This document shows, one piece after another, positions 1,893-49,818 of a stretch of 64,000 nt of DNA; within the stretch, counting starts at the first letter, position 1; every line of letters begins with the position of its first letter. Both the position numbers and the translations under genes were made by a program. The notes below the pieces were generated by a model. That model saw only the letters and a program-made list of their open reading frames with translations, searched no databases and was not told where the DNA came from. The DNA lies in assembly GCA_045546195.1 (NCBI GenBank), contig JAZQCH010000008.1, forward strand, positions 7,481 to 71,480, written 5' to 3'. Origin of the DNA: Candidatus Enterousia sp. Its GTDB lineage: Bacteria; Pseudomonadota; Alphaproteobacteria; Rs-D84.

Positions 1893-3527
1893 ATGAAGTG
1901 GTTGTTTGGTCTGTTTTTTAGTCTGTTGTTTATGTTTGCAGCACCAGCGGCCCAGGTTGTTAATGTGCAATATATACATGATTTGATTCAGCAACGATGG
2001 AATATTACGGTGCCTAAAAATGGGCAGCTAGCTGACAGCAGTGTGGTTGCCAATATGGAATATTTGTTGCGGGCGGTTGATGTGGCAAATTATAAATTGA
2101 ATGGGTGGCAGACGACTAATTATGTGGCCAGTGAATATGCAACAACTGCGGCGGCAGATACGGTTGCAGCCCAGCAGGCGGTGGATGGTTTGATTAAATT
2201 TATAGGTTTCCCATTTAAGTTGACAACAATTGATATGACAGACAGTTTCCAGTTTACGATTTCAGCCAAGGGAACTTTTTATGTCAATTGGGGTGATGGC
2301 ACAGAAGAGGTTATAAACCGGACTGATACAAATGAAACATTATACAGTCATACGTATGAAGTGGCGGGTAAATATACCGTCGAATTAGATGGCAAGGCAA
2401 CTGCGTACAGTAATGGCGGTACAACACCAGCAATCAGTTTTAATAATAACCAGAATATCGCGAGTATAAGTGGCAGTCTGGGGCAAATTTTTTCGACATT
2501 GGCGAATGGTACCCAGCCTAAGTTTTATTATACCTTTGGAAATAATCCGAATCTGACGGGTGACATTCCGCCGGCGCTGTTTTCGGGGGTGGCGGGTAAA
2601 CCCACCAAAAATATGTTTTATGGGACTTTTTATGGTGATAAAAACCTGAGTGGTGAAATTCCGGCGGGGTTGTTTTCGGGAATTAAAGGTGATCCGATGG
2701 AGGGGGTGTTTTACCGGACGTTTGAAAATTGTTCTGGGTTGAGTGGCGGTATACCCGATGGTTTGTTTGATGGTTTGTTTGGGCCGCCGGCCCGTGATAT
2801 GTTTCACGCAACGTTTGCGGGGTGTTCGGGTTTGACGGGGAATATTCCATCAGGCTTATTTGCGGGGATTTCTGGGGCACCAGCCCAGCGTATGTATAAT
2901 GCGACATTTTCGGGGTGTTCGGGTTTGACTGGGGCGATTCCAAACGCATTGTTTGGGCGGTTTGATGGTGCGCCCCAGGAATTGATGTTTGGAAATACGT
3001 TCTTTTCTTGTTCGGGATTAACGGGGTCTATTCCGGCGGATTTGTTCACGGGGATTACAGGTCAGCCAGCCAAGCGTATGTTTGAAGGTACGTTTAATGT
3101 TTGTACAGGGTTGACAGGCGCGTTGTCGGCGGATTTGTTCGCGGGGTTGGATGGGGTGCCTGTGGAAAAGATGTTTTATAATACGTTTGCGGGGTGTTCG
3201 GGATTGTCGGGTGTGTTGCCGGCAGGATTGTTTGCGGGGATTTCTGGGGACGTAGCACCACAGATGTTTTACAGAACGTTTTATAATTGTTCAAAATTGA
3301 CCGGAATTGAAGATGGGGTGTTTGGGGAATTTTCGGGGGTGGTTCAGAATCAGATGTTTACAGAAACCTTTTATCGGAATTATGCTTTGACGGGTGAATC
3401 CGTTAAGAGTGGTGGTAAGTACCTGTATGAAATATGGCCAGATGCCACGCAGAATCATGTTGGTGGGATGTATACGTCGGCAACTGGTTTATCTGACTAT
3501 GCGTCAATACCAGACGTGTGGAAATAA
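1893..3527 (+). CDS. Large secreted repeat protein: PKD-like domain plus about ten 31-aa repeats
   Basis: Internal ATG (MKWLFGLFFSLLFMFAAPAA signal peptide) is preferred over the track start 1779, which overlaps the upstream gene. PKD-like NWGDGTEEV..YSHTYEVAGKYTVEL. Repeats follow MF..TF.GCSGLTG.IP.GLF.GI.G.P... . Confidence 0.75.
   Translation: MKWLFGLFFSLLFMFAAPAAQVVNVQYIHDLIQQRWNITVPKNGQLADSSVVANMEYLLRAVDVANYKLNGWQTTNYVASEYATTAAADTVAAQQAVDGLIKFIGFPFKLTTIDMTDSFQFTISAKGTFYVNWGDGTEEVINRTDTNETLYSHTYEVAGKYTVELDGKATAYSNGGTTPAISFNNNQNIASISGSLGQIFSTLANGTQPKFYYTFGNNPNLTGDIPPALFSGVAGKPTKNMFYGTFYGDKNLSGEIPAGLFSGIKGDPMEGVFYRTFENCSGLSGGIPDGLFDGLFGPPARDMFHATFAGCSGLTGNIPSGLFAGISGAPAQRMYNATFSGCSGLTGAIPNALFGRFDGAPQELMFGNTFFSCSGLTGSIPADLFTGITGQPAKRMFEGTFNVCTGLTGALSADLFAGLDGVPVEKMFYNTFAGCSGLSGVLPAGLFAGISGDVAPQMFYRTFYNCSKLTGIEDGVFGEFSGVVQNQMFTETFYRNYALTGESVKSGGKYLYEIWPDATQNHVGGMYTSATGLSDYASIPDVWK
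2520..3400 (+). repeat. Coding tandem repeat, 93-nt (31-aa) period, about 10 units
   Basis: Units such as MFHATFAGCSGLTGNIPSGLFAGISGAPAQR, MYNATFSGCSGLTGAIPNALFGRFDGAPQEL and MFGNTFFSCSGLTGSIPADLFTGITGQPAKR were counted by hand. Confidence 0.8.
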
Positions 3528-5060: not shown

Positions 5061-5147
5061 GACCACTTGTTTTTGGGGACGCGTTTTATAAATGTCAAAA
5101 ATTATCGGATTATTCTTCGATTCCGTCGGTGTGGCGATAAAAAATAC

Positions 5148-5176
5148 TTGATTTTTCGTAATTTCTGGGGCATAAT
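5148..5176 (+). promoter_or_regulatory. Candidate sigma70-type promoter of rplY
   Basis: TTGATT-N17-CATAAT, about 65 nt upstream of the rplY ATG. Confidence 0.35.
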
Positions 5177-5239
5177 GCGCGGCGCACAGCACCCTTGGAG
5201 GCTGTGTAGATGTAAAAAACAAATCAAAGGAAATAAAAA

Positions 5240-5860
5240 ATGGCTATTGAATTAAACGCAGAAATTCGCAACGTAGCAGGCAAGGGGGCCGCACGTAGCA
5301 TCCGCAATAACAAAAATATCCCTGCTGTTATTTACGGGGAAAAGAAAACCCCAGTCGCAATCGAATTGAACGGTCGTGAATTCGAAATGTTGCTGAAAAC
5401 ACCAGGTTTGCGGACTAAATTGTTCCAGATTAAAACAAGCGCGGGTACAGAAGACGCAATGCTGATGGATGTTCAGTATCATCCAGTAAGTGATGCGGCA
5501 ATTCATGCGGACTTTAAACGCATTGATGTGAAGAAGCCTGTTAACGTGGTTGTGCCAGTTGAAGTTATCAACGCAGAAACATCCAAGGGATTGAAACTGG
5601 GCGGTACATTGAACTTTGCGGTACGTAAGGTTGCTTTGCGCGGTTTGGTTGATGTTATCCCAGAAAAAATCATTATTGATTTGGCGAACCTGACAATCGG
5701 TGACGTGGTTCACGGTACAGATTTGGTTTTGCCAGCGGGTGTTGAATTGGGCCTGCGCCAGGCGGAATTGGCGTTCGCAATCATTGGTGGTAAAATGCCA
5801 ATGGAAGAAGATGAAAAGGCCAAGGCTGCGGCAATGGCGGCAAGTGCTGCGAAAAAATAA
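5240..5860 (+). CDS. rplY: 50S ribosomal protein L25 / general stress protein Ctc
   Basis: 206 aa. N-terminus ..GKGAARSIRNNKNIPAVIYGEKKTPVAIEL and a two-domain Ctc-type length with an A/K-rich tail. Confidence 0.9.
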   Translation: MAIELNAEIRNVAGKGAARSIRNNKNIPAVIYGEKKTPVAIELNGREFEMLLKTPGLRTKLFQIKTSAGTEDAMLMDVQYHPVSDAAIHADFKRIDVKKPVNVVVPVEVINAETSKGLKLGGTLNFAVRKVALRGLVDVIPEKIIIDLANLTIGDVVHGTDLVLPAGVELGLRQAELAFAIIGGKMPMEEDEKAKAAAMAASAAKK

Positions 5861-7267: not shown

Positions 7268-8188
7268 TCTGGAAAATTGTTTGTCGATATTCATGATTGT
7301 GGATATTTGTTCGCGCATGAATTGGACTTTGTTCTGATTGTTTTGGATGCCTTTGATGCCTTCTGGTGATATGCGCAAATCATCAGATGCCTTGATAAAA
7401 CGTTTTAACAGGGCGCACATAACGCGATACTTCATGATTTGACGCAGGTTTTCGTTATTAACACCAGGCATTGAATATTCTGAACTGTTGTGTAATTTAC
7501 AATATGTTTCGTATGTGCGACGGCATATCCCCAATTCGATTTGTAATGGGGCAAATATGTCGCGATAGATGAAACGATAGTCGGCTTCGGCAAAATCAAT
7601 GAATGATAGGGTGCTGGTTTCTGGGTCGTATAAAACGTTGCCAGGGTTCAGGTCACAATGCGACCAAGCGGCGCGCGTGTCGTATTCAAATGTGCCGATG
7701 TTATCGCGAATTGACGCCATGTATTTTACTTCGTCGTCTTTGAACCAATAATGCATTTTGTTTTCAATGAAATTATCCAGACGATTGAATTTTAATTCAG
7801 ATGCGATTTTGTGGCGCTGAATTTCCTGGATGGGTTTTAATTCGTTCATATCAACCAAAAATGCTGCGATACCGTCAATGATTTCGTATTGCTGGCGGCG
7901 CGATAGTGTTTTGTATAGGTCGGCCGTCAGATGTTCGCCGGGGGCACATTCTTCCAGTAATTGGTATTCATCGTCTTTGATATAAATCATGCGCGGGATG
8001 TTATAACGCGGATTGCCGACGGCGTGGATTTCGTCAATGGCATCTTTGGTACGATGCTGTTTCGCCAGCCATTTGTCGCGTGCGTCGGCATTTAGTGTTG
8101 GCAGGGGACGCTTCATAATCAGCGTGTCGCCAAAATAGACGATATAACTTTCGCGACCGTGGATAAGATTGTTTATGTTCTGTGTCAT
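7265..8188 (-). CDS. Aminoglycoside/choline-kinase-like phosphotransferase (APH fold)
   Basis: ATG at 8188 lies 4 nt after the Fic-like stop. Catalytic loop HCDLNPGNVLYD (HxDxxxxN), metal-binding IDFAEADY, and a Lys in TLIMKRP. The track ORF N-terminus overlaps the upstream gene and was trimmed. Confidence 0.75.
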   Translation of the reverse strand: MTQNINNLIHGRESYIVYFGDTLIMKRPLPTLNADARDKWLAKQHRTKDAIDEIHAVGNPRYNIPRMIYIKDDEYQLLEECAPGEHLTADLYKTLSRRQQYEIIDGIAAFLVDMNELKPIQEIQRHKIASELKFNRLDNFIENKMHYWFKDDEVKYMASIRDNIGTFEYDTRAAWSHCDLNPGNVLYDPETSTLSFIDFAEADYRFIYRDIFAPLQIELGICRRTYETYCKLHNSSEYSMPGVNNENLRQIMKYRVMCALLKRFIKASDDLRISPEGIKGIQNNQNKVQFMREQISTIMNIDKQFSR

Positions 8189-37069: not shown

Positions 37070-37146
37070 CGGGGTGTAGCTCAGCCTGGTAGAGTACTTG
37101 CATGGGGTGCAAGGGGTCGCAGGTTCGAATCCTGTCACCCCGACCA
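37070..37146 (+). tRNA. tRNA-Pro (anticodon GGG)
   Basis: CGGGGTG acceptor, D-arm CTCAGCCTGGTAGAG, anticodon loop AT-GGG-GT, T-arm GCAGG-TTCGAAT-CCTGT, encoded CCA. Confidence 0.9.
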
Positions 37147-37229
37147 TAAAAATTTAAATCGGCCGTGTGCCGATTTTAATTTTTATCAGTGGGTATGTCG
37201 GTTTGGACATTACATTGTTTTAACAATGT

Positions 37230-37311
37230 CAGGTTCGAGCCCGTAGGGCGAAAGGGGCCCGCCACGAAAGTGGTGGGAATTACAATCCTGTCTACGGCGA
37301 CCATAAAAATT
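37230..37311 (+). other. tRNA-Pro 3'-half pseudo-copy interrupted in the T-loop
   Basis: CAGGTTCGA, then a ~45-nt insert containing the CCCGCCAC-GAAA-GTGGTGGG hairpin, then AATCCTGTCTACGGCGACCATAAAAATT. The real tRNA has GCAGGTTCGAATCCTGTCACCCCGACCATAAAAATT. Confidence 0.7.
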
Positions 37312-37336
37312 AAACCGCCCAAATGGGCGGTTTTTG

Positions 37337-39130
37337 TTAACTGACCAATTTTTGCCAGAAAGTTTTCTTTTGTGGTTGCTTTTTGCGTTTGCGACGTTGG
37401 GCATTGACCGTGGTCTTTTTTGCGTCAACGTGTTGGGCATTTTTGCGCTTGGCATCCGTAGATGGTGCGTATGCCCCCAGCAAATCTTCGGTTTTATTCT
37501 GTTCAGGTGCAACACGCTGAATCGAATATTGGTCAATGTTCATCAGGCTGTCATCGCCGACAATCACAATTTCGGTTTCGAATTTTGATTCCATTTCGGC
37601 CAATTCGGCGCGCTTGTGATTCAGCAGATATACCGCGACGTCGGTTGGAACAGTCATGATGATTTTCTGGGCCGCCTTGGCCAGTAATTTTTCCTGGAGG
37701 TGGCGGAACAAAATAATCGCCGCCGTCTGAATCGATGGAACAACACCCGCGCCCATACAGTGTGGGCATGCGACGTATGATGATTCCATAAAACTGCTGC
37801 GCAGGCGTTGACGCGATAACATCAATACACCAAAGTTGTTGATTTTGGCAACCTGGGTGCGGGCGCGGTCGCGTTTCATTACTTCGCGCATTTTCAATTC
37901 CAGTTTGCGGTTGTTCTTTTCTTCTTCCATGTCGATAAAGTCAATCGCAACAATGCCCGCCAGGTCGCGCAGACGTAATTGTAATGCGATTTCTTCGGCC
38001 GCTTCCAGATTAGTGTTCAGCGCGGTTTGTTCAATGTCTTTTTCTTTAATCGCGCGGGATGAATTAACGTCGATTGTCACCATGGCTTCGGTTTGGTTGA
38101 TGACCAATGAACCGCCCGATGGCAGTTGGACGTATGGACCGTGCAGACCTTCTAGTTGTTTTTCAACACCGGCCTTGACCATCAATGGAACGCCGGCATC
38201 TTTGTAGTGTACCAACTGTTTGCGTGGTGCGCGACCATACATTTGGATGAAATGCTGTTTAGCGGCATCAAATGCTTCTTCGCCTTGGATAATCAGAACA
38301 TCTTCTTTGTCACTTAAAAAGTCGCGAACGACACGGCGCAACAGGGAATCTTCGGTGTGAATTGTGACCGGTGCAACCGATTCCAGCGTTGTTTTGCGGA
38401 TTTCGTTCCATAAATTTACCAGATAGTCATAGTCGGCGGCAATATCAGCCGGCGCAGCCCCCATTGCGGCAGTGCGCAGGACGACCGTCATCCCCTTTGG
38501 TATCTTTAAGCCGTGCAGGACTTCGCGTAATCTGGTGCGTTCGGATTTGTCAGAAATCTTTTTAGAAATACCATAACTGTTGCGTTTGCGTGAATTTGGC
38601 ATCAAGACCGCAAATCGACCCGCCAATGACAGGTATGTTGTCATTGATGCGCCCTTTTGGCCGCGTTCTTCTTTGACGCCCTGGACCAATAAAATTTGTT
38701 TTGGTTTGATAACGTCCTGGATTTTGAATTCACGGGCGCGTTTGGCAAATTCTTTGTTGTCTTCGCCGGCGCTGTGGTCGTCGTATTCGGCGACTTCGTC
38801 TTCTTCGTCGTTTGGATCGTCGTCATCGTCAACAATGTTGGCGTGCGCCAGTTCCAGTAATTTCTTTTTCTGTTCGGCGGTTACCTGGTAATAATCAGGG
38901 TGAATTTCAGAAAATGGCAAAAATCCATTTTTGCCGGTTCCATAATCAACGAACGCAGCCTGAAGCGATGGTTCAACGCGAATAACCTTGGCCAGATAGA
39001 TGTTGCCCTTAATCTGGGGTTTTGTTGTGGTTTCAACGTCAAAGTCTGATACGCGGTTAGTAGATGGATCGACAACTACGACACGTGTTTCTTCCGGGTG
39101 GACTGCATCCACATATATTTTTTTTGACAT
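37337..39130 (-). CDS. rne: Ribonuclease E/G family endoribonuclease (probable RNase E, short C-terminus)
   Basis: ATG 39130 follows AAGGAT. S1 domain with an acidic insertion (DDDDDPNDEEDEV), catalytic core ..TEAMVTIDVNS.., Zn-link CPHCMGAG, basic tail. Confidence 0.9.
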   Translation of the reverse strand: MSKKIYVDAVHPEETRVVVVDPSTNRVSDFDVETTTKPQIKGNIYLAKVIRVEPSLQAAFVDYGTGKNGFLPFSEIHPDYYQVTAEQKKKLLELAHANIVDDDDDPNDEEDEVAEYDDHSAGEDNKEFAKRAREFKIQDVIKPKQILLVQGVKEERGQKGASMTTYLSLAGRFAVLMPNSRKRNSYGISKKISDKSERTRLREVLHGLKIPKGMTVVLRTAAMGAAPADIAADYDYLVNLWNEIRKTTLESVAPVTIHTEDSLLRRVVRDFLSDKEDVLIIQGEEAFDAAKQHFIQMYGRAPRKQLVHYKDAGVPLMVKAGVEKQLEGLHGPYVQLPSGGSLVINQTEAMVTIDVNSSRAIKEKDIEQTALNTNLEAAEEIALQLRLRDLAGIVAIDFIDMEEEKNNRKLELKMREVMKRDRARTQVAKINNFGVLMLSRQRLRSSFMESSYVACPHCMGAGVVPSIQTAAIILFRHLQEKLLAKAAQKIIMTVPTDVAVYLLNHKRAELAEMESKFETEIVIVGDDSLMNIDQYSIQRVAPEQNKTEDLLGAYAPSTDAKRKNAQHVDAKKTTVNAQRRKRKKQPQKKTFWQKLVS

Positions 39131-45633: not shown

Positions 45634-45709
45634 ATTGCTATATTTATTCCTTGCGATTTGATGAAAATTTGCTATTGTAAATTTGTTCAACAAAATAAGG
45701 AGAAAAATC

Positions 45710-46507
45710 ATGACTTGGACAATTGTTGTGCTGGCGCTTGGTATCGCTTTGTACATGTTGTGTGGCATGTTGCAGGCATCAAGTATGGCAAAAAAAGCAA
45801 TCAAAGCATTGGCAATCATTATTATGGCGGGCGCGGTTTGCCGTTTGTATGTGCCGTATTATTTGACATCTGTGAATCCTGCGATTATTCAGGAAATGGT
45901 CGAAGGTATGCAGGAACAGCAGAACGCTGAAAAGAACAAAGCAATCCGTAAATTTGTTCGTGAATCTGCGTTTGAAATGAGTGAACATGCCCCAATCTTG
46001 GGTAATCCAGAAGCGAAAAAGACAATCTATGTCTGGACAGCGGCATCGTGTGGTTATTGCCGTCGTGTTCATGGCGAACTGGACCGCGTGTTGAAATCGC
46101 GTGACGATGTCAAGGTTGTGATGAAAAACTTCTCTATCCATGGTGTGATGAGTGATGGCCCTGCGCGTGCGATGATTGCCGCTAAGATGCAGGATGCAGC
46201 CAAGGCAGCAAAATTTGCGGATATCGTTATGACCAAAGAATATCGTCCATCTGAAAATATTCAGGACCAGGCGAAATTGGCCGCAGCGATTGAAAAGAAC
46301 CTGATGAAATTCGCAGAAGAAGCAGGTTTGGACGCAAAACAGTTGAAGGAAGATATGTCCAGCGAAGTTGTTGAAATCGAATTGGCAAACGTTCGTGATT
46401 TGGCAAATCGTTTCGAAATCACAGGTACACCGTTCTTGATTATTGGCGAAGAAGCGTTCCCAGGCGCAATCCCAGCCGATCAAATCAACGCAGCGTTGGA
46501 TAAATAA
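45710..46507 (+). CDS. DsbA-family thiol:disulfide oxidoreductase, membrane-anchored
   Basis: AAGGAG SD, N-terminal TM segment, thioredoxin-fold active site WTAASCGYCRR (CxxC). Confidence 0.75.
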   Translation: MTWTIVVLALGIALYMLCGMLQASSMAKKAIKALAIIIMAGAVCRLYVPYYLTSVNPAIIQEMVEGMQEQQNAEKNKAIRKFVRESAFEMSEHAPILGNPEAKKTIYVWTAASCGYCRRVHGELDRVLKSRDDVKVVMKNFSIHGVMSDGPARAMIAAKMQDAAKAAKFADIVMTKEYRPSENIQDQAKLAAAIEKNLMKFAEEAGLDAKQLKEDMSSEVVEIELANVRDLANRFEITGTPFLIIGEEAFPGAIPADQINAALDK

Positions 46508-46522
46508 TTTTTGATTGCACAT

Positions 46523-46552
46523 AAAAAAATCCCCCACCCGGGGGATTTTTTT
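46523..46552 (+). terminator. Intrinsic terminator after the dsbA-like gene
   Basis: AAAAAAATCCCCC-ACCC-GGGGGATTTTTTT. Confidence 0.75.
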
Positions 46553-46593
46553 ATTTCCCGCTTACTTCGATAAACTTTTATTTATCTAAGTAA

Positions 46594-46801
46594 TTGAATA
46601 TATCAAAAATATTTTGTATAATGTGTGGGCATTGGGAAACCAACGTTGGGCTTAGAAACCCATTGAGTGCGTCATAGGGATGACGTAAAAAATCTCCAAC
46701 CAGGTAAGTGGTTGGAGTGTGCAGAATACATTGAATAATGCACGCAATTCACTCAATTGTTTCTAAACTCCAACCACCATTGTTTTTCAAAGGTGGTTTT
46801 T
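46594..46801 (+). promoter_or_regulatory. Promoter plus ~180-nt structured leader with terminator/antiterminator alternative (leader 1)
   Basis: TTGAAT-N17-TATAAT (46594-46622). Hairpin CTCCAACC(46694-46701)/GGTTGGAG(46710-46717). A second CTCCAACC at 46768-46775 overlaps the terminator arm AACCACC(46772-46778)/GGTGGTT(46792-46798), which is followed by TTT (3 T). Confidence 0.6.
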
Positions 46802-46825
46802 AATTTATAACCAAGGGATGTGAAT

Positions 46826-47455
46826 ATGAAAAAAATCTTTTTGACGACAGGATTGTTGTCTGTTTTAACGATGCCGGCATTGGCGGATGTCAAGTGGTTC
46901 GTTGGGGGTGGTTTGGGGTATGCGTCGCCCGTGTTTTCAGATTTGATAGATGATGCGATTGATGCGGACTATTTCAATGATGAAAGTGGAACGTTGACCT
47001 TTCATCTGATGGGTGGTATGCGTTTTGGTGAACGTGATAAAATATATAACGGTGGTGTTAGTGCAAACTATGTTTATATGTCAGATTTGGGGCATTTGAC
47101 AGACGGGTATAATAATGAATATGTGATTGATGCTACATTGGATTTTTCAACGTGGTACATATCCTATGACAATTATGTTCGTGTGTCGGGTGACTTTCAA
47201 TACAGAACCGATTTTATTGCGTCGATTGGATTGGGTTTGGGTTGGATGAACGAAAGTTTGGTAAGTGGTTCGTATTATGAAGACTATGAAGATGATGGTA
47301 TGTTGGTTGCGTTAAAATTTGGTTTTGGTGGTGAAACTAAAATCGAAGGTTTGGGGTGGCACGCCATGTTGAACTTTATTTCACTGAATGCCGATGATGA
47401 TGTGGATTTACAGGGAAGTGTTGGCTTTGACGTTGGTGTAAAGTACACATTTTAG
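46826..47455 (+). CDS. Small outer-membrane beta-barrel protein (OmpA-like/OMP_b-brl family)
   Basis: Signal peptide MKKIFLTTGLLSVLTMPALA, alternating Gly/aromatic beta-strand pattern, C-terminus ..GVKYTF. Confidence 0.7.
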   Translation: MKKIFLTTGLLSVLTMPALADVKWFVGGGLGYASPVFSDLIDDAIDADYFNDESGTLTFHLMGGMRFGERDKIYNGGVSANYVYMSDLGHLTDGYNNEYVIDATLDFSTWYISYDNYVRVSGDFQYRTDFIASIGLGLGWMNESLVSGSYYEDYEDDGMLVALKFGFGGETKIEGLGWHAMLNFISLNADDDVDLQGSVGFDVGVKYTF

Positions 47456-47462
47456 TTTAATT

Positions 47463-47530
47463 AAAAATCCCCCTGTGTCCATCCACGCAAATATTTGTTT
47501 GTGCGGGGGCCGACTGGGGGGATTTTTTTT
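47463..47530 (+). repeat. Terminator hairpin with conserved core (copy 3 of 4)
   Basis: AAAAATCCCCC..TCCATCCACGCAAATATTTGTTTGTGCGGGGGCCGA..GGGGGGATTTTTTTT. Confidence 0.8.
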
Positions 47531-47551
47531 ATGTGCGTGATTCCTTTCATC

Positions 47552-47793
47552 TTGCTTTGTGTGATTTTTTTATTTATGCTGTGGGATGTCTGATATGATG
47601 TCAGACATCAAGGACGCAGTTAGTGGACGGGTTTAGTCACCCGAACATGACGAAATTACTAACTATTTGTCCCGACATTATTTGTCGGGAAGCTGTTTGC
47701 TATACAAAAGCCCACGGGTAAAGGCAAATGGATTCATCGTTATGTTTGAATGACTAACTTCCCGACACCTACAAAACTGTGGGTGTTTTTTTA
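47552..47793 (+). promoter_or_regulatory. Promoter plus ~210-nt structured leader with terminator/antiterminator alternative (leader 2)
   Basis: TTGCTT-N17-TATGCT. Hairpin TCCCGACA(47670-47677)/TGTCGGGA(47683-47690). CTTCCCGACA at 47758-47767 can pair with TGTCGGGAAG and overlaps terminator ACACCTAC(47765-47772)/GTGGGTGT(47779-47786), which is followed by T7. Confidence 0.6.
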
Positions 47794-47815
47794 TAAAAAC
47801 AACAGGAATTTAGTC

Positions 47816-48373
47816 ATGAAAAACATAACAAAAGTATGCGCCATTTGCGGGATGGTGTTGGTCAGCGTACAGGCGGCAAGCGCCAGTCGTGCAATTGAAA
47901 ATATTGGGGATTTTTTGTCCTTTAAGGTTTTGCCAATGTATTCGGCGGCATCTACGTTTTATAATTCTGATTGGAACACATGGTATGATTATGATTGGGA
48001 CGGGTTAAAGCAATTGGTGGTGGTGAATTTAATCAAGTCAACTGTGACAGACAGATTAAAAGAGCAGATTGATGAACCACGACCAAATGGGCGGGGAAAT
48101 GACAGTTTCCCATCTGGACATACATCAAATGCGTTTGCCCATGCCGCGTTTATTCATCGGCGTTATGGTATAAACCAGGCGATTTTACCGTACACAATGG
48201 CGACATTTGTTGGCTATTCGCGGGTTCAGGCCAAATGGCACTATGTTCATGATGTGTTGGCCGGGGCGGCAATTGGTTTTCTGTCGGCGTGGGTGTTCGC
48301 AGACCCAAAGTATAATGTTGTTGTGTCCGCCGATACAGATGGGGCGCGTGTGGATTTTCATACAACATTTTAA
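47816..48373 (+). CDS. PAP2-family (acid/lipid) phosphatase
   Basis: Signal peptide, then the three PAP2 motifs KEQIDEPRP, PSGH, SRVQAKWHYVHD. Confidence 0.85.
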   Translation: MKNITKVCAICGMVLVSVQAASASRAIENIGDFLSFKVLPMYSAASTFYNSDWNTWYDYDWDGLKQLVVVNLIKSTVTDRLKEQIDEPRPNGRGNDSFPSGHTSNAFAHAAFIHRRYGINQAILPYTMATFVGYSRVQAKWHYVHDVLAGAAIGFLSAWVFADPKYNVVVSADTDGARVDFHTTF

Positions 48374-48380
48374 TGTGTAA

Positions 48381-48407
48381 AAAAAAACCGCCAAACGGCG
48401 GTTTTTT
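48381..48407. terminator. Bidirectional terminator
   Basis: AAAAAAACCGCC-AAAC-GGCGGTTTTTT. Confidence 0.75.
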
Positions 48408-49818
48408 AATTCTGGAAGAAACGGTTAAATATTTTTTCGTTTACTTCGGTTGGGTATTCGCGCATCAGAAACGAATTATAGTCGTCCATAATGCCGGATT
48501 CTGACATTGTTTTCATTTCATCACGCAAATCAGCCATTTGTTTTTTATCAACCGTTGGGGCGATTGATTTTTTGATGTTCAATACATAGAACGCATCAGG
48601 TGATGAAACGATTGATTTTTCATCAATGTCACCACGGAATGCGGCAACCAATACATCGGTTGGTGCCCCAGATGCGCGCGAAACAGTTGCGGATTTACCG
48701 TTTGCCAACTTGCCGTTTGTTTTGAAGTCTGTTAAAATCGCGTTGGCACGGACATAGGCCTGTTTTTTCTGTTCGGCACGTTTCCAATCATTTACCAATG
48801 ATTTTTTAACAGATTCAAATTCCGCCGTGTGTGATGGCGTGATTTTGTTCACACGCAGGAATACAAAACCGTCGTTGGTTTCAATCATTTCACTTTCCAG
48901 TTCGGCGTCCATGTCAAAGATTTTGGCAATCATATCATCTGTCAACACTTTGTCCACAGGGCGATTGTCGCGGTCAAATGTGCCCAGGTCAACATATTTC
49001 GCACCGTGTTTCTTGGCCGCGTCCACCATCGTTTCGCCGGCAATAATATCATCTTCGAATTTAACGGCGATGGCATAGCCTGCGTCGTATTTGTCGGGCA
49101 GTGTCATTTCAGTTGGTATAATTACATATGAAACACTGCGGGTTTCAGGGACTGTTTGTGGATTCTGCTTATAGTATTCGGCCAGTTGTTCGTCCGAAGG
49201 TGCGGCAACATCAAAGTCAGAATATTTGACAGTTGCGTATTCGATTTCGCGTGTGCCATAGCGCGCATCGTATGTCGCGCGCAGGGAAAATTCAGGTTGT
49301 GGTACCGCCACGCCGACCGCGCCCAGAACCATAGAACGCAAAACGTTGCCACGCAGAACGTCGGCAAAGCCCGCTTCGGTATAGCCGGAATTATATAGTA
49401 TGTTGTCGAATGCCAGTGTGGAAAATTCGCCATTGACCTGAAATTCTGGGAATGAACGGATTTCGTGGGCGATGCGTTTGTCGCTGACCACAAAGCCCAG
49501 GTCGTCTGCGCGGTTTTCCGCCATCTGCTGGGTTGCCATTTTTGTCAGGATTTGTCGCATAAATGCGTTCTGGGTCGCGGTGTCCGCATAGACCTTGCGT
49601 TGTTCATCCTTGCTTAACTGGGCCATGGCGCGCGATTTTTCCATATTAAATTCCTGGGTGGAAATTTCGGTGTCGCCAACGCGTACCAGTGTGTTGTCAT
49701 TTGTCACATTGCCAAAAATCCATTCGGCAACACCCCAACCAACGAAAGAAAATGCCAAAACACTGATTAAAATCTTGGCAATTGGTTTTTCTGATGCATT
49801 TCTTAAATATTCTAGCAT
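48406..49818 (-). CDS. PpiD-like periplasmic chaperone (SurA N-terminal domain protein)
   Basis: ATG 49818 follows AAGGGGA. MLEYLRNASEKPIAKILISVLAFSFVGWGV.. is a membrane-anchored N-terminus typical of PpiD. Confidence 0.7.
   Translation of the reverse strand: MLEYLRNASEKPIAKILISVLAFSFVGWGVAEWIFGNVTNDNTLVRVGDTEISTQEFNMEKSRAMAQLSKDEQRKVYADTATQNAFMRQILTKMATQQMAENRADDLGFVVSDKRIAHEIRSFPEFQVNGEFSTLAFDNILYNSGYTEAGFADVLRGNVLRSMVLGAVGVAVPQPEFSLRATYDARYGTREIEYATVKYSDFDVAAPSDEQLAEYYKQNPQTVPETRSVSYVIIPTEMTLPDKYDAGYAIAVKFEDDIIAGETMVDAAKKHGAKYVDLGTFDRDNRPVDKVLTDDMIAKIFDMDAELESEMIETNDGFVFLRVNKITPSHTAEFESVKKSLVNDWKRAEQKKQAYVRANAILTDFKTNGKLANGKSATVSRASGAPTDVLVAAFRGDIDEKSIVSSPDAFYVLNIKKSIAPTVDKKQMADLRDEMKTMSESGIMDDYNSFLMREYPTEVNEKIFNRFFQN

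Follow-up and report, generated by a model that had tools for sequence, protein, structure and literature searches.

The 64,000-nucleotide stretch of Candidatus Enterousia DNA analysed here (the window) contains a structured leader of about 175 nt situated between a promoter and a gene for an outer-membrane protein (OMP)-like product, with an intrinsic terminator at its 3' end. We refer to this segment as Leader 1, and propose that it is probably a cis-acting two-state transcription attenuator. A preliminary description made from the letters of the window had suggested a mutually exclusive terminator and antiterminator here, and the comparison with homologues described below supports that reading. 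Leader 1 also belongs to a large family, absent from Rfam 15, that fronts genes for secreted and envelope proteins, and its putative antiterminator fold looks to be a distant relative of the small RNA sRNA-Xcc1. The window, which has a second and diverged copy (Leader 2), would be the founding example of this large undescribed family of two-state attenuator leaders.

The two proposed folds differ in the partner chosen by the 3' arm of hairpin P3. In Fold A, helix P1 (GGG together with P1a and P1b) would close a four-way junction holding P2, P3 and P4, leaving the downstream CTCCAACC for pairing with the GGG and for the terminator hairpin with its U-tract. In Fold B, the P3 3' arm (GGTTGGAG, 46710-46717) would drop its upstream partner (46694-46701) and pair instead with the identical downstream CTCCAACC (46768-46775), giving a three-way junction of P3', P4 and P5 and removing 4 nt from the 5' arm of the terminator. 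Both of these alternative pairings had been pointed out previously, and both are conserved with compensatory changes. The same description had proposed a long-range helix, ATTGAGTG (46662-46669) with CACTCAAT (46750-46757), enclosing three hairpins. This is found in the minimum free energy (MFE) structure, although the helix is longer than was proposed and also includes GGG/CTC and TTAGAAAC/GTTTCTAA.

Two alignments provide the evidence for these folds. One contains 12 orthologous leaders, those of 11 species-representative genomes together with that of the window, which precede proteins that are 50-71% identical; the other is a model-based alignment of 56 homologues obtained with a covariance model. 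From the 12 orthologues RNAalifold recovers P0, P1, P3, P4 and the terminator of Fold A with 17 compensated pairs, and 97.3% of the cells are paired as compared with 87.6% in shuffles and 37-50% when the partners are slid. In the 56 homologues 96.4% of the cells of Fold A are paired, with two-sided changes at 31 of 43 pairs and 507 compensated cells, a statistic that none of 500 shuffles matches (slid controls, 35-50% paired). A joint MAFFT alignment of Leader-1-type and Leader-2-type copies placed the switch-helix registers one column apart and was unusable for pair counts, for which the model-based alignments were used.

Fold B is conserved in the same sequences. In the 12 orthologues its P3' helix, formed by GGTTGGAG(T) and the downstream (A)CTCCAACC, is 100% paired and has two compensatory events (A-U to G-C and G-C to U-A), and among the 56 sequences it is slightly better conserved than the P3 helix with which it competes (98.4% and 93.8% of cells paired, respectively). 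In P5, pair 256:278 is A-U in 30 and U-A in 25 of the 56 sequences, and both columns are unpaired in Fold A. Slid controls for Fold B are 27-52% paired. In alignment A2, column 154 holds the 5'-most base of the downstream CTCCAACC, and it covaries with each of its alternative partners, column 31 in Fold A and column 101 in Fold B. Because both folds are conserved with compensatory changes, both are under selection, which is the signature of a switch. Check of conservation and covariation in the leaders of orthologous OMP genes, as the preliminary description had proposed, thus finds both for each of the two folds, and the leader has the structural hallmark of riboswitches, a covarying structured domain joined to an expression platform of mutually exclusive helices.

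The individual helices behave similarly in the 56 sequences. There are compensatory changes at all five pairs of P0 and both-sided changes at 13 of the 18 pairs of P1; the GGG of P1 is unchanged in 54-56 of the 56, and it and the CC are near-invariant. In P2 the stem letters change among orthologues while the pairing is kept (for example GGTGTCT/AGACATT and TGTCC/GGACA), and the Leader-2-type copies have no P2. P4 shows covariation at five of five pairs with 99.2% of cells paired, and its loop motif ATAYA...GAATAA is also present in the P4 internal loop of sRNA-Xcc1. The terminator stem is 99.1% paired with three covarying pairs and its T-run, GGTGGTTTT, is conserved, so that it has the form expected of an intrinsic terminator, a G+C-containing hairpin followed by a U-tract and conserved in homologues; it was missed by a simple terminator scan because of its 13-nt loop. 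The AACCACC..GGTGGTT hairpin and T-run of the earlier account are present, although not 25 nt before the Shine-Dalgarno sequence as stated there: the T-run ends about 12 nt from the Shine-Dalgarno AAGGGA and 24 nt from the ATG.

Leader 1 as a whole has an MFE of -66.8 kcal/mol, compared with -44.4 +/- 3.9 for shuffled sequences (z = -5.8), and none of 200 shuffles is as low. The minus strand also folds well (z = -7.1), and on that strand the P3 hairpin (46694-46717) followed by ATTTTTT resembles a terminator. We take the plus strand to be the functional one because conserved G-U pairs (at P1 columns 54:290 in 52 of 56 sequences, for example) would turn into A-C mismatches if the minus strand were the functional one, and because of the orientation of the gene; promoter, terminator and gene of Leader 1 all point the same way.

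Fold A plus the terminator is the unconstrained MFE structure in 10 of 12 diverse copies. Forcing P3' in the full leader costs 6-18 kcal/mol in these 12 (9-15 in most), and 1.4-14 kcal/mol when the transcript ends short of the terminator 3' arm. Given this greater stability of Fold A in most copies, termination, with the gene off, is the expected default, and an effector would be needed during transcription to favour Fold B. We envisage that RNA polymerase starts near 46629 and makes the leader of about 175 nt. If Fold A forms, transcription would end at about 46801 and the OMP gene would be off; if an effector stabilises the P3'/P4/P5 junction, or blocks the P1 5' strand, the downstream word would capture the P3 3' arm and polymerase would read through into the gene. 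In this model the effector most likely works by binding the sRNA-Xcc1-like three-way junction. A small molecule is a tentative candidate for this role and a protein an equally tentative one, while an RNA, possibly the terminated leaders themselves, seems less probable; in terms of mechanism, a strict ligand-binding riboswitch and a device worked by a protein or RNA effector could equally be accommodated. It is possible that the terminated RNA of about 170 nt has an extra role in trans, given the tandem gene-less units described below. The outcome would be a co-regulated secretome in these reduced-genome gut Alphaproteobacteria.

Several observations weigh against a two-state attenuator. The only metatranscriptome contigs found, of very low depth (5-7), fall on the upstream gene and on the OMP coding sequence from 46816 onwards and leave the leader uncovered, and the sequence analysis identified neither a ligand nor a protein effector. 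The terminator of Leader 1 has a large loop (13 nt) and a U-tract of only five U. At another locus (L063), tandem units occur on their own, each with a promoter and a terminator but without a gene between them, which would fit an RNA with a function of its own. As to the statistics, the 56-sequence alignment was fitted to the Fold A model and its pair counts are thereby biased towards Fold A, and as the metagenome copies were retrieved by a sequence pattern, conservation at the pattern positions is inflated.

The promoter TTGAAT-N17-TATAAT of Leader 1, present at the place given in the preliminary description, is the sole 10-of-12 match on the plus strand in a promoter scan of 46300-48600, and its -10 element is kept in 12 of the 12 orthologous leaders; the transcription start is predicted near 46629. 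The leader has no notable open reading frame (ORF), also as described: inspection of the aligned leaders gave no upstream ORF conserved across orthologues, short ORFs in some copies being missing from others. The gap between terminator and Shine-Dalgarno is too short for a separate promoter. The gene downstream probably encodes a small outer-membrane beta-barrel, consistent with the earlier assignment, as the 209-aa product has a signal peptide and a C-terminal YTF and PF13505, an outer-membrane beta-barrel domain, is present in its homologue P0018; Pfam gives no match to the window protein. All homologues come from metagenome-assembled genomes of animal or human gut origin that bear the label Alphaproteobacteria or Candidatus Enterousia. 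Enterousia belongs to the order Rs-D84 and is fermentative, with genomes of less than 1 Mb (PMC12306168). Situated 5' of the Leader 1 promoter is the bidirectional terminator of a DsbA-like gene (45683-46507), AAAAAATCCCCC-N4-GGGGGATTTTTTT at 46521-46554, a variant of which recurs after the OMP gene (47463-47529). Read or contig depth spikes at this site in every run, which suggests a terminator motif widely used in this genome and in related ones.

Beyond the window, more than 60 copies of the leader occur in gut metagenomes and in the genomes of relatives. Scanning metagenome contigs for a sequence pattern, and then scoring with a covariance model, gave 55 full-length matches of 65-138 bits at about 50 loci. 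The switch words differ between copies: they are TCCCGAC / GTCGGGA in Leader 2, include CTCCTGGCC / GGTCAGGAGG and TCCCCGA / GTCGGGGGG in the copies of locus L040, and are CCTCCTGC / GCAGGAGG in that of locus L010. The same switch logic thus appears to have been re-invented independently with different sequences. Five copies lie within 20 kb of L040. This locus came from a search, through xth homologues, for the L010 paralogue that is cut off at a contig end; synteny was not conserved, and the search yielded L040 instead.

A downstream ORF was called for 53 of the 63 copies examined, usually 10-60 nt 3' of the element and usually with a Shine-Dalgarno sequence. A Sec-type signal peptide begins most of the 53: 34 are flagged by a crude test, and by eye several of the remainder look signal-peptide-like too. 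Among the recognisable domains are Listeria-Bacteroides repeats, F5/8 type C, trypsin, outer-membrane beta-barrel, PAP2 and PLD. A few copies precede small proteins resembling mobile-element-related ones. Many have downstream of them genes for cysteine-rich secreted proteins with YCWC[KR]...S.WV[FY] (L040, L060, L065, L067, L086, L114, L117 and others); some of these proteins also have Listeria-Bacteroides repeats, and most are without a Pfam family. At two loci the OMP gene is in fragments, and there the leader lacks everything from P2 to the terminator 3' arm (L016, about 2900-3020; L028, about 2860-2985), which suggests that leader and gene decay together.

Two further arrangements were seen. 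At L040, a leader at positions 663-829 is represented solely by its 3' half, with P4, P5 and the 3' copy, and has no terminator; it overlaps the end of a DciA-like gene, and immediately downstream of it comes a complete Leader-2-type unit in front of a PLD-like gene. At L063 (154-1005, plus strand) four full promoter-leader-terminator units stand in tandem without an intervening ORF, an 84-aa ORF comes after them, and a fifth unit is present at 5130-5290 on the minus strand; like sRNA-Xcc1, unit 4 carries a small inserted hairpin, here in its P4 loop. The tandem array resembles that of sRNA-Xcc1 reported in Xylella (PMC12189769).

Leader 2 was found by a sequence-blind scan of the window for a word, its reverse complement, the same word again and a T-run, which gave Leader 1, Leader 2, one tRNA-related false positive and nothing else. 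Its switch words are TCCCGACA, TGTCGGGA and TCCCGACA in order at 47669-47767, the second TCCCGACA overlapping the terminator. Model R1, the Leader 1 model, aligns to it over its full length with 17 bits, and in a search of the whole window with model R3, built on the 56-sequence alignment, Leader 1 scores 143.9 bits and Leader 2 is second-best with 26.4 bits (E = 9e-6; E-values of our own models are rough). From its parts (Table 1), Leader 2 would be the same device with a different switch helix. The motif ATGACG, which had been noted as common to both leaders, does not occupy homologous positions: in Leader 1 it forms the 3' arm of P2, and in Leader 2 it falls within the 5' strand of P1b. Nor does Leader 2 precede an OMP gene: downstream of it is a gene for a PAP2-family phosphatase, whose true start is the ATG at 47816. 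Orthologues of this gene in other genomes have a different neighbourhood, and all carry a Leader-2-type leader. Leader 2 is absent downstream of the OMP gene in other genomes because PAP2 is located elsewhere there, and it was recovered through PAP2 homologues.

Weak model matches at 37153-37424 in the window were rejected, as they consist of a tRNA-3'-end remnant repeat and a terminator and have neither GGG-N8-CCC nor switch words. An imperfect direct repeat of about 35 nt of the tRNA 3' end (AATCCTGTC..CGACCATAAAAATT) lies at 37270-37310, about 165 nt downstream of the tRNA (37070-37143), which explains these matches; it looks like the attachment-site remnant of an integrated element.

Table 1. 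Positions in the window of the parts of the two leaders and of their downstream genes.
Feature	Position	Strand	Description
Leader 1 promoter	46594..46622	+	-35 TTGAAT 46594-46599, 17-nt spacer, -10 TATAAT 46617-46622
P0, 5'-terminal hairpin	46629..46646	+	TTGG / GAAA loop / CCAA and flanking pairs; RNAalifold
P1 5' strand	46648..46669	+	GGG 46648-50, P1a TTAGAAAC 46652-59, CC 46660-61, P1b ATTGAGTG 46662-69
P2 hairpin	46670..46685	+	CGTCAT / AGGG loop / ATGACG
J2/3, A-rich linker	46686..46693	+	TAAAAAAT; A-run kept in alignments
P3 hairpin	46694..46717	+	5' copy CTCCAACCA, loop GGTAAG, 3' arm TGGTTGGAG; the 3' arm is the partner-switching strand
P4 hairpin	46719..46743	+	GTGCA / 15-nt conserved loop GAATACATTGAATAA / TGCAC; common to both folds
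P5 hairpin, Fold B only	46745..46759	+	CAATT / CACTC / AATTG; overlaps P1b 3' strand
P1 3' strand	46750..46770	+	P1b CACTCAAT 46750-46757, TG, P1a GTTTCTAA 46759-46766, A, CTC 46768-46770 pairing with GGG
3' copy CTCCAACC	46768..46775	+	with A46767 pairs with 46710-46718 as putative antiterminator helix P3'; overlaps terminator 5' arm by 4 nt
Intrinsic terminator	46772..46801	+	AACCACC 46772-46778 / 13-nt loop / GGTGGTT 46792-46798, five-T run to 46801
Gene downstream of Leader 1	46826..47455	+	209 aa, signal peptide, C-terminal YTF, Shine-Dalgarno AAGGGA 46813-46818
Leader 2 promoter (weak, putative)		+	TTGCTT 47552-57 / TATGCT 47575-80
Leader 2, diverged paralogue	47586..47793	+	order of parts as in Leader 1: P0, GGG-N8-CCC, P1a/P1b, P3, P4, P5, 3' copy, terminator
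Leader 2 P0	47587-47608	+	
Leader 2 P1 5' strand		+	GGG 47629-31, P1a TTAGTCA 47633-39, CCC 47640-42, P1b AACATGACGA 47644-53
Leader 2 P3		+	GTCCCGACA 47669-77 / TGTCGGGA 47683-90
Leader 2 P4	47695-47729	+	with inserted hairpin
Leader 2 P5	47732-47751	+	
Leader 2 P1 3' strand	47738-47763	+	
Leader 2 3' copy	47758-66	+	CTTCCCGAC
Leader 2 terminator	47764-47787	+	followed by T7 run; strong, found by terminator scan
Gene downstream of Leader 2	47816..48373	+	185-aa PAP2-family phosphatase, N-terminal signal or membrane segment, Shine-Dalgarno AGGAA

In Rfam 15 there is no match to Leader 1 at the gathering thresholds nor at E <= 10, in keeping with the earlier remark that it belongs to no recognisable riboswitch class; matches to the Phe, His, Thr and rimP leaders were rejected, as they involve only the terminator of the neighbouring upstream gene. 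With Leader 2, however, RF02221 (sRNA-Xcc1) matches the part that would form Fold B (47684-47774) at 39.3 bits (E = 5e-5 in a 1.5-kb search), and there are sub-threshold matches to two more paralogues, L034 (36.4 bits) and an L040 copy at 7819-7892 (31.8 bits), one of which is of Leader 1 type. The gathering score of 53 bits is reached by no copy here, and four bona fide sRNA-Xcc1 elements that we fetched score 69-73 bits. In the reverse direction, model R2, for which nothing but the Fold B halves of ten Leader-1-type sequences was used, finds three of these four (L031, L032 and L033) at their Rfam coordinates with 16-22 bits, each match being the best in its locus and agreeing helix for helix over the full length. 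The full-length model gives 12 bits or fewer on the bona fide elements, which suggests that only the Enterousia version has the 5' competitor half and the U-tract terminator. Fold B has the outer helix enclosing two hairpins, the first with AUACAA / GAA(UAA) unpaired stretches, by which sRNA-Xcc1 is recognised, and the conserved Leader 1 promoter is about 80 nt upstream of the outer helix, whereas the 5' end of the sRNA-Xcc1 transcript is the outer helix itself. These matches indicate that the antiterminator fold and sRNA-Xcc1 are distantly related.

sRNA-Xcc1 is an 88-nt RNA with mapped ends that is abundant in Xanthomonas (PMC2996969), where it is also situated upstream of symE in integron cassettes (bioRxiv 10.1101/2025.06.18.660453). 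It lies upstream of an ORF6N gene in an APSE phage, and in the plasmids that we fetched it is about 40-50 nt upstream of a BRO-family gene or a hypothetical gene on the same strand. The published coordinates for EDL933 fall in the hok/sok locus of the RefSeq record, as the assembly coordinates differ, and this element was dropped. Two unrelated sRNA-Xcc1 loci, in a Desulfovibrio plasmid (L031, about 1420-1450) and in Aeromonas (L033, about 1425-1455), have a common upstream box, CCCGTCAGNCGTRGTTTTTTTATGCCC, that ends about 35-45 nt before the element in both.

What might the leader be if not, or not simply, a two-state attenuator? A more specific version of that model is a true riboswitch, in which a small molecule (a second messenger or an envelope-related metabolite) binds the P3'/P4/P5 junction and turns the genes on. 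The multi-helix junction, the conserved unpaired GGG/ACCC and P4 loop (GAA..ATAYAT..GAATAA) and the terminator-based expression platform would suit it, as would the many copies in one genome before a coherent class of gene, such as the five near L040; c-di-GMP-I (GEMM) riboswitches likewise occur in multiple copies upstream of surface-protein genes. However, the sequence of the junction strand J5/3' is not conserved and covaries with P1a instead, the regulated genes point to no metabolite, and the sRNA-Xcc1 relatives front mobile-element genes (symE, BRO, ORF6N), and we consider a true riboswitch possible but doubtful. Other known regulatory devices were rejected on inspection of the aligned sequences: a leader-peptide attenuator, as there is no conserved ORF; pairing of the T-box type with the tRNA CCA through UGG, which is missing from the Leader-2-type copies (a T-box itself has zero Rfam match at E <= 10); ANTAR dual hexaloops, as the loops are not conserved hexaloops; and CsrA sites in the P2 loop, where GGA is not conserved and from which Leader 2 is excluded by its absence of P2. 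Alternatively, the element could be a stand-alone, trans-acting small RNA gene of about 170 nt, related to sRNA-Xcc1 and with its own terminator, expression of the downstream gene being incidental readthrough. The abundance and mapped ends of sRNA-Xcc1, its tandem arrays and the four gene-less units of L063 are consistent with this, and a terminator with a U-tail is typical of Hfq-type small RNAs. Nevertheless, at more than 40 loci a gene with a Shine-Dalgarno sequence follows the element on the same strand after 10-60 nt, and the gap to the OMP gene has no room for another promoter; in a pure small RNA, a conserved alternative pairing that invades the terminator would be purposeless, and leader and gene appear to decay together. 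We regard such a gene as unlikely on its own, although a dual role as cis leader and trans-acting small RNA is possible.

It might also be supposed that there is no switching at all, and that the leader is a constitutive structured 5' untranslated region (UTR), an mRNA stabiliser or processing site in which the second pairing is fortuitous. Fold A is indeed much more stable than Fold B, and ompA-type mRNAs are stabilised by structured 5' UTRs. Pairs found in Fold B only covary, however (P5 256:278; P3' 99:156 and 101:154), the duplicated word is maintained in every paralogue despite its differing letters, and a terminator directly upstream of the Shine-Dalgarno that was never bypassed would abolish expression, all of which makes a constitutive role very improbable. 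Finally, the multiple and tandem copies and the long inverted repeat (25 nt, 72% complementary) could recall a promoter-carrying miniature inverted-repeat transposable element (MITE) or REP-like repeat with P1 as its terminal inverted repeat. We find this hardly credible: copies in one genome are highly diverged (Leader 1 and Leader 2 match at 17-26 bits only), the inverted repeats differ in letters yet stay complementary, the copies keep a fixed orientation and distance relative to the gene, the synteny of orthologous copies extends to species with 50%-identical proteins, and the P1a/P1b word has a single match in the window.

This is a new and well-supported family of structured RNA with more than 60 members in an uncultured, genome-reduced gut lineage that has few recognisable regulators. 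It is an unusually clean natural two-state RNA, both states being visible by covariation and the switch helix having been re-coded several times. The predicted regulon consists of secreted and surface proteins (OMP-like, PAP2, PLD, cysteine-rich 'CWC', Listeria-Bacteroides-repeat and trypsin-like protease), and the effector of the switch would therefore probably control the interaction of these bacteria with host or partner cells.

With terminator/antiterminator riboswitches and attenuators (c-di-GMP-I/GEMM, T-box, PyrR and trp-type), Leader 1 has in common a promoter-proximal leader with mutually exclusive helices that share a strand, a position just upstream of a Shine-Dalgarno sequence, and multiple copies before a coherent gene set. 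It differs from them in having no Rfam riboswitch, T-box or leader match and no leader peptide, and in its putative third layer, an anti-antiterminator formed by an exact upstream duplicate of the terminator-proximal word and an 18-bp closing helix. The Correia elements of Neisseria and promoter-bearing MITEs are short, multi-copy elements bounded by inverted repeats that lie upstream of genes and form a long hairpin when transcribed, and the Enterousia leaders resemble them in each of these respects. In contrast to such elements, the Enterousia copies have diverged with compensation, keep a fixed orientation and their orthologous positions, and have no sequence-conserved terminal repeats.

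The closest likeness is to sRNA-Xcc1. Both have a three-way junction with an outer helix, GGYYGG(R)AGG / CCUCC..CC, that encloses two hairpins, the first with AUACA(A) and GAAUAA-like unpaired stretches, and an ACC tail after the outer helix. In both, a downstream hairpin overlaps the 3' strand (CCTCCCGGCCACCAT..ATGGTGG in Aeromonas and CTCCAACCACCAT..GGTGGTT in the window), the element is directly upstream of a gene on the same strand, and there are multiple copies and tandem arrays. The Enterousia version differs by the addition of about 80 nt at the 5' end (P0, GGG-P1a-CCC-P1b, P2 and the competitor copy) and of a canonical U-tract terminator, and its Leader-1-type copies lack the small hairpin inside P4; moreover, sRNA-Xcc1 fronts the mobile-element genes symE, BRO and ORF6N, whereas the Enterousia leaders front chromosomal genes for secreted proteins. 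We tentatively suggest that the sRNA-Xcc1 fold is an effector-binding domain, either a small-molecule aptamer or a dock for an antiterminator protein, that has become part of a three-layer master switch of the secretome in Enterousia-like bacteria, whose genomes are below 1 Mb. sRNA-Xcc1 is widespread and tied to mobile elements and virulence regulation, and since 2010 has been described and treated as a trans-acting RNA, with a mechanism lacking. The family relation suggests a new and testable reading of it as cis-regulatory, and if this is true, the 'trans-acting' sRNA-Xcc1 genes of Xanthomonas, Xylella, Neisseria, Aeromonas, phages and integron cassettes would be the cis-regulatory leaders of the genes downstream of them.

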